Source of the DNA: a virus
Direction: 5' to 3' (one strand)
Length of the DNA stretch: 16,021 bases
IMG/VR virus record: IMGVR_UViG_3300004481_001935
Positions within the stretch are counted from its first letter, which is position 1. Each line of letters begins with the position of its first letter. Positions 9,031 through 9,200 of the stretch are shown here, one piece after another. Made by a program: the position numbers and the translations under genes. The notes beneath the pieces are model-generated. The model was given only the letters and a program-made list of their open reading frames with translations. It did not search any database and had not been told where the DNA came from.

Positions 9031-9200
9031 GCTTCCTGCCGGACGAGTAAAATTGGCGTCTCCGGGGTTGGAGTTAAGTAGTCGCGGGTCGCTCCCAGTC
9101 GACGAAATAGCTAGGGCATGGCTAGCCAAAACGCCTGAGGACTAGCCAGCTATCTTGCGGCGCGAGTCGTGGAGCTGGGTGGGAATCCAGCCAGGAAGCA
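9031..9200 (+). ncRNA. Oversized (170-nt) normal-order tRNA-like RNA with a structured central insertion
   Basis: GCTTCCTG (9031-9038) pairs 8/8 with CAGGAAGC (9192-9199), followed by A. D-like arm CCGGA..AGTAAAATTGG..TCCGG. T arm GCTGG-GTGGGAAT-CCAGC (9174-9191) abuts the acceptor 3' strand directly. The insert has a 12-bp interrupted helix ATAGCT(AGGGCAT)GGCTAG / CTAGCCAGCTAT. It starts 5 nt after the upstream stop. Confidence 0.5.

Follow-up and report, generated by a model that had tools for sequence, protein, structure and literature searches.

The viral DNA stretch IMGVR_UViG_3300004481_001935 from IMG/VR (16,021 nucleotides, analyzed at full length and referred to below as the window) encodes a structured noncoding RNA on the + strand at positions 9030-9200, and this RNA is conserved in evolution. 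Judged from its sequence, it belongs, as a divergent member, to a widespread family of phage RNAs outside Rfam 15. An acceptor-like stem (P1) closes the RNA and is followed by a short hairpin (P2), a long central region, and a 5-bp hairpin (PT) stacked on P1 (Table 1). A first-pass annotation, made from the letters alone, had described a tRNA-like RNA at this site. The elements it named, namely an 8-bp acceptor-like end-to-end stem, a stacked 5-bp hairpin, a D-arm-like hairpin with a GG-containing loop, and a 12-bp interrupted helix in an expanded middle, were all recovered at the positions it had assigned to them, and its view of a discrete structured RNA was borne out.

Folded as a single sequence, the RNA gave a minimum free energy of -70 kcal/mol (z = -1.96), and 3 of 200 shuffled sequences folded as well. 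As this is only modestly beyond chance, the proof rests on comparison between relatives. The protein encoded just upstream belongs to DUF7873, which has more than 690 homologues; 190 loci encoding it were fetched. Among these, target-like units were confined to the closest clade (DUF7873 at least 65% identical) and to one 128-kb phage contig (L094; with its upstream flank, L310). The close set comprised 11 distinct full units, present in zero to four tandem copies per locus with spacers of about 10-20 nt. L176 carries four units, and L175 and L185 have the DUF7873 gene but no unit at all. Paralogous unit types were evident: the window unit was 76% identical to unit 4 of L176, the L002 unit was 76% identical to unit 2 of L176, and the remaining identities were 44-69%.

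The pairing of the presumed acceptor and T arm proved to be conserved in these homologues. In a MAFFT alignment covering 10 relatives of the close clade, 98.6% of the P1 and PT cells were paired, and 12 of 16 pairs had changed on both sides (7 of 11 in P1 and 5 of 5 in PT). The two non-pairs in this count represent a one-column register shift within a single sequence. None of 500 shuffles was as good, and controls in which the strands were slid gave 28-55% pairing. RNAalifold found P1, P2, and PT independently, with covariation at 17 of 18 pairs. P1 started with UU(U)G and ended with CAA(A) in 10 of the 11 units; in 8 of 11 it consisted of 8 bp up to a G-C closing pair, with UU before and AA after. 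U9030 and A9200 may form a ninth P1 pair in the window. The interrupted helix of the window joins ATAGCT (9107-9112) to AGCTAT (9148-9153) and GGCTAG (9120-9125) to CTAGCC (9142-9147), and counterparts, hairpins with a related loop and covarying stems, were seen in L174, L176 unit 3, and L306.

G-U pairs were present and A-C cells were entirely absent, both in the close clade and in the distant copies described below, which identifies the + strand as the transcribed one. This bears directly on the idea of a DNA-level element, be it similar to a miniature inverted-repeat transposable element or an attachment or replication site, in which the stem would be a by-product. Such an element would fit the differing presence of the unit among close relatives (in L175 it is missing almost precisely at its L001 position), the tandem duplication of units, and ends that are inverted repeats by construction. 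However, the terminal repeats differ between copies and still pair, G-U pairs appear only when the + strand is read, and the internal helices and the pseudoknot covary too. Neither a target-site duplication nor an associated transposase or integrase was seen. The DNA-level reading is largely refuted by the strand-specific G-U covariation, and we assign it next to no probability.

The family extends far beyond the DUF7873 loci. A first scan of IMG/VR with the exact PT motif GGAGCCNGGTGGGGAATC yielded 55 loci. The hairpin was completed in 50 of them, and a P1 of 7-19 bp was present in 46, each with a different P1 sequence. Directly 3' of the P1 5' strand, these loci share a conserved P2 with its flank, C-GGCG-UGGCAG-CGCC-GGGUAAG, which had not been part of the search. 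A second scan, seeded with P2, returned further members with the same PT. Altogether, at least 46 distinct distant copies reside on unrelated viral contigs, and with the close clade the count is at least 57. All follow one plan: P1, a short D-arm-like P2, a variable center of about 20-250 nt, GGA, GCCGG-GUGGGGAAU-CCGGC, and the P1 3' strand. Among the short distant members are the 103-nt L316 unit and the L329 unit. PT was near-invariant as GCCGG-GUGGGGAAU-CCGGC across the distant copies, a set seeded by the exact motif. Because of this seeding, the distribution is a lower bound, and selection accounts in part for how invariant PT and P2 look among the distant copies. In 30 trimmed distant units the structure was 99.8% paired, with many G-U pairs; P1 pairing in this set is partly by construction. 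P2, which had not been used in selection, was 99.3% paired with covariation at 5 of 5 pairs and thus constitutes independent evidence.

Two covariance models were built, R1 from the close clade and R2 from 21 distant IMG/VR units only. R1 scored the window unit at 111.4 bits and distant units, at loci pre-selected by the PT motif, at 23-39 bits. With filters off, an R2 search of both strands of the entire window returned a single match at an expectation value (E) of 1 or below: positions 9030-9200 of the + strand, 35.5 bits, E = 1.6e-5, over the full model. It also matched L310, L002, and L306. Since R2 was built without the candidate or its close relatives, this is an independent test of family membership. 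The individual elements agree. As in the family, where P2 follows P1 after 0-1 nt and is succeeded by GGGU, window positions 9039-9071 read C-CGGA...UCCG-GGGUUGG, so that the 5' side keeps C-[P2]-GGGUUGG. The 3' side keeps UGGA-[PT]-C; here GGA precedes the family-type hairpin (GGA-PT, 9171-9191), and PT abuts the P1 3' strand without a gap.

Rfam 15 gave no match to the target or to six distant loci at gathering thresholds, and none to the target at E of 10 or below. The Rfam model M23 matched the P2 region of L314 with 24 bits against a gathering score of 41, which was judged coincidental. A blastn search of cultured phages gave no match for the window region or for a distant unit, and a description of the family, its fold, or its pseudoknot was not found in the searchable literature. 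A 2023 catalogue of 8,495 unnamed candidate structures from IMG/VR may include the family (PMC10690425).

In 20 of 40 units, the unit's own center contained an exact 6-nt Watson-Crick complement to its P2 loop; with shuffled centers the mean was 0.71 and the maximum 4. For P2 loops that departed from the consensus, the complement was found in the unit's own center in 16 of 30 cases versus 32 of 1128 for the centers of other units. Examples are UGUCAG/CUGACA, CGGCAG/CUGCCG, UAGCAG/CUGCUA, UUUCGA/UCGAAA, and AGUGAG/CUCACU. The family fold accordingly consists of P1, P2 immediately after it, a pseudoknot of 5-6 bp between the P2 loop and the center, and PT stacked on P1. Within the window, GGCGU (9055-9059) can pair with ACGCC (9131-9135), and the ortholog L176 unit 4 has GGCGU/GCGCC; the close clade is small and its P2 loops are long. 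A corresponding pseudoknot is possible in the window RNA.

The suggestion that the RNA is a tRNA did not hold. Neither ARAGORN nor the Rfam tRNA and tmRNA models made a call at 9031-9200, and three real tRNAs were found in the window. What had been taken for an 8-nt T loop lacks the UUCRA signature; the family consensus is N-U-G-(N0-2)-G-G-W-A-N with a length of 8-10 nt. RNAfold offers an alternative reading of PT with 7 bp and a GGGA tetraloop in the window, which fits the GNRA pattern; most members have GGGGA. The D-like arm fared better in part: P2 does lie after P1 and does carry GG in its loop, but the 2-nt linker is missing, and in the family the loop pairs with the center instead of the PT loop. 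With its 17-nt loop, which includes UUGGCGU, P2 is D-arm-like in position only. The proposed kinship with the 217-nt RNA at 7582-7798 failed as well, because no common covariance model emerged: with filters off, R1 gave no match there at E of 10 or below, and R2 none at E of 1 or below.

These findings also bear on a degenerate tRNA gene, or one split by an insertion or intron, as the origin of the RNA. This origin would explain why acceptor-like, D-like, and T-like elements appear in tRNA order and why the RNA sits among tRNA or tRNA-like genes in some phages. Against it stand the failure of ARAGORN and the Rfam tRNA model to detect the RNA and the lack of an anticodon arm, a T-loop sequence, and a 2-nt linker. 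Furthermore, at least 57 copies strongly conserve the PT loop GUGGGGAAU, the GGGUA that follows P2, and the pseudoknot. Strong conservation of such non-tRNA features implies selection for a distinct fold, and we regard the tRNA-derived explanation as very improbable.

Table 1. Features of the target RNA and of its surroundings in the window
Feature	Position	Strand	Support or remark
Whole RNA unit, about 170 nt	9030-9200	+	R1 111.4 bits; R2 35.5 bits
P1 5' strand, acceptor-like closing stem, GCTTCCTG (as RNA GCUUCCUG)	9031-9038	+	pairs with 9192-9199
P2 hairpin directly 3' of P1, CCGGA 9039-9043/TCCGG 9061-9065	9039-9065	+	RNAalifold; covariation in distant copies
Candidate pseudoknot strand GGCGU in P2 loop	9055-9059	+	by homology with family pseudoknot; complement ACGCC 9131-9135
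Central 12-bp interrupted helix, 16-nt loop CCAAAACGCCUGAGGA	9107-9153	+	sequence; loop holds ACGCC 9131-9135
PT hairpin, GCTGG 9174-9178, loop GTGGGAAT 9179-9186 (as RNA GUGGGAAU), CCAGC 9187-9191	9174-9191	+	sequence; covariation
P1 3' strand CAGGAAGC, then A9200	9192-9199	+	pairs with 9031-9038
Spacer motif GUUCUUUGAAAA between unit and YrlA-like RNA	9202-9213	+	after most units
DUF5661 protein	305-1348		
Major-vault-protein-like (MVP-like) protein	1412-4009		
tRNA-Met	4098-4172		
Thg1-like protein	5281-6027		
SLOG/YspA protein	5940-6389		
RlaP nucleotidyltransferase	6373-7581		
Separate tRNA-like RNA, 217 nt	7582-7798	+	directly after RlaP gene
DUF7873 protein	8268-9026		
YrlA-like Y RNA, permuted module (T arm, closed acceptor-like stem, D arm)	~9224-9470	+	weak Rfam YrlA match
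Terminator-like hairpin GGCCAUGGGG...CCCCAUGGCC, then U-rich tract	9477-9545	+	z = -2.89; ends noncoding array before Ro60 gene
Ro60 (TROVE and vWA domains)	9571-11172	+	

The RNA is a conserved, strand-specific fold and an independent unit able to duplicate. With about equal measures of belief and doubt, we favor the view that it is a stable RNA excised in the manner of a tRNA and acting in trans as a protein-binding adaptor or decoy. It would be co-transcribed with the DUF7873 mRNA and the YrlA-like RNA, from a candidate sigma-70-like promoter upstream of DUF7873 (TTGACT-16-TATAAT, 8212-8239) to the terminator-like hairpin at 9477-9545. Release from the precursor would proceed as in a tRNA cluster, with an RNase P-like 5' cut between UU and G at the start of P1 and a 3' cut or trimming in the A/U-rich spacer GUUCUUUGAAAA, and the product would accumulate as a stable RNA of about 170 nt. 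The conserved compact core would offer a handle for processing, stability, and protein binding, and the fast-changing center would confer specificity. In this phage, the RNA would serve as a trans-acting accessory partner (adaptor or decoy) of the Ro60/YrlA ribonucleoprotein and of the Thg1-like and RlaP end-repair enzymes.

An independent RNA gene with the behavior of a tRNA cluster is supported by the tandem arrangement in zero to four copies, by the UU/G...CAA ends, and by units next to tRNAs. One unit in L319 abuts tRNA-Ala with zero spacer, other units lie near tRNAs of the same strand, and in L310 the unit has a tRNA-like RNA on one side and a YrlA-like RNA on the other, within a tRNA array. 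The link to Ro60 and YrlA in this lineage is supported by the location of the units, which lie between the DUF7873 gene and the YrlA-like RNA, upstream of the Ro60 gene, by the neighboring Ro60, Thg1-like, RlaP, and MVP-like genes, and by the fact that all complete arrays end at the YrlA-like RNA (window, L001, L174, L176, L184, L306, and L310). In L333, a YrlA match (E = 0.0016) lies 630 nt upstream of the unit. The Y RNAs of known Ro60 loci and T4 rnaC, both described below, offer precedents for this view.

Several observations weigh against the trans-acting adaptor or decoy. The processing, stability, and protein partners of the RNA are what we infer. RNase P recognition is uncertain, given that PT lacks a true T loop and that P1 ranges from 7 to 19 bp. 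The Ro60-binding motif GNCGAAN0-1G is absent from the target and from the neighboring YrlA-like RNA; among the units, a single chance-like match occurred in L176 unit 3. Ro60, RlaP, Thg1, and MVP were found near none of the 55 distant loci. The expectation that homologues would always follow the same gene was not confirmed either: a DUF7873 relative was near only 1 of the 55 distant loci, and L175 and L185 have the gene without the RNA. The core function of the family can therefore not depend on Ro60, and the association with Ro60 may be specific to this lineage or a matter of position alone. In addition, a Shine-Dalgarno-like sequence followed within 25 nt in 25 of 47 distant units, which fits a role in cis.

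Such a cis-acting role is the main rival. Here the element would act within an operon transcript, either as processing or stability punctuation or as a put-like or leader-type element through which transcription or translation of the next gene is altered, and no free RNA would be formed. As the first-pass annotation had noted, the RNA directly follows the gene at 8268: the DUF7873 stop codon ends at 9026 and the unit begins 4-5 nt later. Distant units likewise occupy short, co-directional gaps, with an upstream stop codon within 40 nt in 20 of 47 and a downstream start within 100 nt in 23 of 47, and the downstream Shine-Dalgarno-like sequences are close. Sampled neighbors of distant units encoded DNA methyltransferase, RecT-like, exonuclease, Cas4-like, and SbcC-like proteins, and recombination and replication genes are often adjacent. 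Antitermination RNAs act in early phage operons with genes of these kinds. However, the downstream genes are mutually unrelated, and no protein family recurred as a neighbor in more than 4 of the 55 loci. A leader role would hardly account for tandem arrays of up to four units or for units embedded among tRNA or tRNA-like genes, and in the window the next element is another RNA instead of a coding gene. We consider a purely cis-acting element unlikely, although it is a stronger contender than the remaining alternatives.

The RNA is embedded in an island of RNA-repair and Ro60 genes on a viral-type contig. The gene set of this island (305-11172), like that of L177 (1-12942), comprises MVP-like and TROVE/Ro60 proteins, several noncoding RNAs, Thg1-like and RlaP enzymes, a cREC/REC domain, and SLOG; the gene set of relatives adds Band-7 and a CTP_transf-like enzyme. 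By their predicted identities, the island genes would together account for each of the three kinds of component in a vault-like particle, beside RNA-end repair enzymes. L174, a 94%-identical relative, carries an inserted HNH endonuclease gene (4797-5315 of L174) after the YrlA-like RNA and before Ro60; the window lacks this gene.

A further possible role is that of a decoy or substrate mimic for host tRNA-targeting nucleases or for the phage's own Thg1-like 3'-5' polymerase or RlaP 3' nucleotidyltransferase, by which the tRNA pool would be protected or regulated. RlaP extends damaged RNA 3' ends by 1-2 nt (PMC12776372). The acceptor-like stem, usually of 8 bp and closed by G-C in the close clade, would suit such a mimic, as would its location beside the Thg1-like and RlaP genes; rapid copy-number turnover and a hypervariable center are expected under an arms race. 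Speaking against mimicry, the RNA has no anticodon-arm mimic, T loop, or CCA, most family members reside away from repair genes, and the terminal G-C pair is not conserved in distant copies. We judge this possibility somewhat less probable than the cis-acting one. A bolder form of the trans-acting adaptor or decoy reading is that the family represents an unrecognized phage RNA class, in which a pseudoknot-locked, roughly tRNA-shaped core carries a hypervariable, exchangeable module as a programmable trans adaptor or decoy and was recruited in some lineages to an island of Ro60/Y RNA and vault-like RNA repair. Such an RNA might counter host RNA-targeting defenses or bring processing or repair machinery to chosen targets. 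This extended proposal is speculative, and we think it rather improbable as a whole.

The YrlA-like RNA next to the target is a distinct entity. The Rfam YrlA match at 9361-9419 (18.8 bits) falls in this neighbor, outside the target. The YrlA-like RNA combines a T arm (9362-9378), a closed acceptor-like stem-loop, and a D arm GCUCAGUGGAAGAGC, with GCCGA (9355-9359) and UCGGC (9421-9425) forming an opened anticodon-like stem. GUGGGC/GCCCAC closes its 5' domain, in which AGUCUU(GUUGU) motifs are repeated. A YrlA-like RNA about 100-300 nt after DUF7873 was found in dozens of phage contigs and at most of the 190 loci. DUF7873 and YrlA-like RNA were also seen together, within tRNA gene arrays, in cultured large phages of Rhizobium, Ralstonia (phiRSL1), Vibrio, Klebsiella, and Gordonia; in the one record inspected, the jumbo phage RHph_Y65 of Rhizobium (L311, 3995-5210), the stretch after the DUF7873 gene is unannotated. 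The two thus form a recurrent pair in many large phages, including cultured ones without an annotated Y RNA in the stretch inspected, and DUF7873 may be a Y-RNA partner protein. A confident AlphaFold model of DUF7873 (pLDDT, the predicted local distance difference test score, of 88) gave no significant fold or sequence match in the PDB.

A spacer motif, GTTCTTTGA(A/C)AA, is found after most units and lies ahead of the YrlA-like RNA also where no unit is present (L175, L185, L003, L004, and L015); it also occurs in L184. A near copy lies within the last DUF7873 codons (9002-9013), and a similar sequence forms the -35 region of the promoter-like site that precedes DUF7873 (TTCCTTGACTAT, 8208-8219). 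The sequence GTTCTTTGAAAA was considered as the -35 element of a fixed sigma-70 promoter for the YrlA-like RNA. This was rejected, because the spacing to the candidate -10 element varies from 14 to 22 nt and the latter overlaps a covarying RNA stem (GUGGGC/GCCCAC versus GUGAGC/GCUCAC and others). As a target-site duplication the motif was likewise discarded, since it is also present in the DUF7873 coding end (9002-9013) and before the YrlA-like RNA without a unit. A loose scan of viral contigs with GGAA-N13-24-GTTCTTTGAAAA returned chance matches only.

Further tRNA-like structures were noticed. The 7582-7798 RNA combines a 7-bp acceptor (GCGCCCA/UGGGCGC) with canonical-looking D and T arms, the latter being CUGGG-UUCGAUC-CCCAG. 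Its anticodon-like stem of 5 bp closes a 9-nt loop, about 130 nt are inserted where a variable arm would be, and it received no ARAGORN or Rfam call. In L174, L175, and L177 there is no intergenic room for such an RNA after the RlaP gene. Downstream of Ro60, at about 13596-13660 (+), lies a second permuted tRNA-like module with a T arm GCUGGUUCGAGUCCAGC, a stem UCUUCAGG-UUUUAU-CCUGGAGA, and a D arm UAGCUCAGCUGGUAGAGCG, for which ARAGORN made no call. Immediately upstream of its unit, L310 encodes a tRNA-like RNA of about 110 nt (10629-10739, +) with an 8-bp acceptor GCCGGGAG/CUCCCGGU, a long extra arm, and the T-arm loop UUCAAGU, again without an ARAGORN or Rfam call. A neighboring 629-residue protein in L310 was considered as a diverged Ro60 or MVP and showed no similarity to either. 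By eye, a nested segment resembling a cloverleaf was seen in the center of the L330 unit (3206-3367, -); it comprises GUAGCUCAG..., a hairpin GCGGGUUUGAACCCCGC, and a stem GAUGCG/CGCAUC, and neither ARAGORN nor Rfam confirmed it as a tRNA.

Ro60 loci of bacteria and phages specify at least two Y RNAs, often from one precursor, and one of these mimics tRNA; in Mycobacterium smegmatis, RNase P cleaves YrlA, and YrlB contains a T arm. A GNCGAAN0-1G motif is located near the 5' end of bacterial Y RNAs (PMC4201824). The target resembles the Y RNAs (YrlA, RF02553; YrlB/Yrn2) in lying on the same strand as the Ro60 gene, less than 400 nt away and directly 5' of the YrlA-like RNA, and in its tRNA-reminiscent arms; M. 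smegmatis YrlB also has a T-arm-like hairpin. Like a Y RNA, the target lies less than 4 kb from a same-strand Ro60 gene; most of the wider family does not. Unlike YrlA, which is permuted (T arm, closed acceptor, D arm), the target keeps the unpermuted order, has no GNCGAAN0-1G, and does not match the YrlA model; unlike Y RNAs in general, most family members are far from Ro60. With tRNA (RF00005) and tmRNA the target shares an acceptor-like stem, a GG-loop hairpin in D position, and a coaxial 5-bp hairpin in the same order, but it is without an anticodon arm, a T-loop sequence, or CCA, its linker is 0-1 nt, and in the family the GG loop pairs with the center.

Vault RNAs, the eukaryotic partners of MVP and of the TROVE protein TEP1, have a closing stem, tRNA-derived box A and box B segments near their ends, and a variable center. 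The window, which encodes MVP-like and TROVE proteins, would offer a comparable setting by analogy; the target shows no similarity to vault RNAs in sequence or by model, as no Rfam match was found, and the link to MVP applies to this lineage only. T4 species 1 RNA (rnaC, 139 nt, stable) is another phage RNA larger than a tRNA, with paired ends and a hairpin adjoining the closing stem, encoded among tRNA genes. It differs in its canonical T loop GGUUCGAAUCC and in lacking P2, GGGUA, the pseudoknot, and the PT signature, and over the T4 tRNA region neither R1 (filters off) nor R2 matched rnaC. We know of no function assigned to T4 species 1 RNA so far. The kind of molecule described here is thus already known, both as phage RNAs of tRNA-like shape that are not tRNAs, on record since T4 species 1 RNA, and as accessory RNAs at Ro60 loci; the family, its fold, and the pseudoknot are absent from Rfam 15. 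If correct, these results define a covariation-supported family of four elements and at least 57 copies as a target for structure determination, and the branch within the island of Ro60, Y RNA, Thg1-like protein, and RlaP would provide a concrete setting in which its partners and processing can be addressed.

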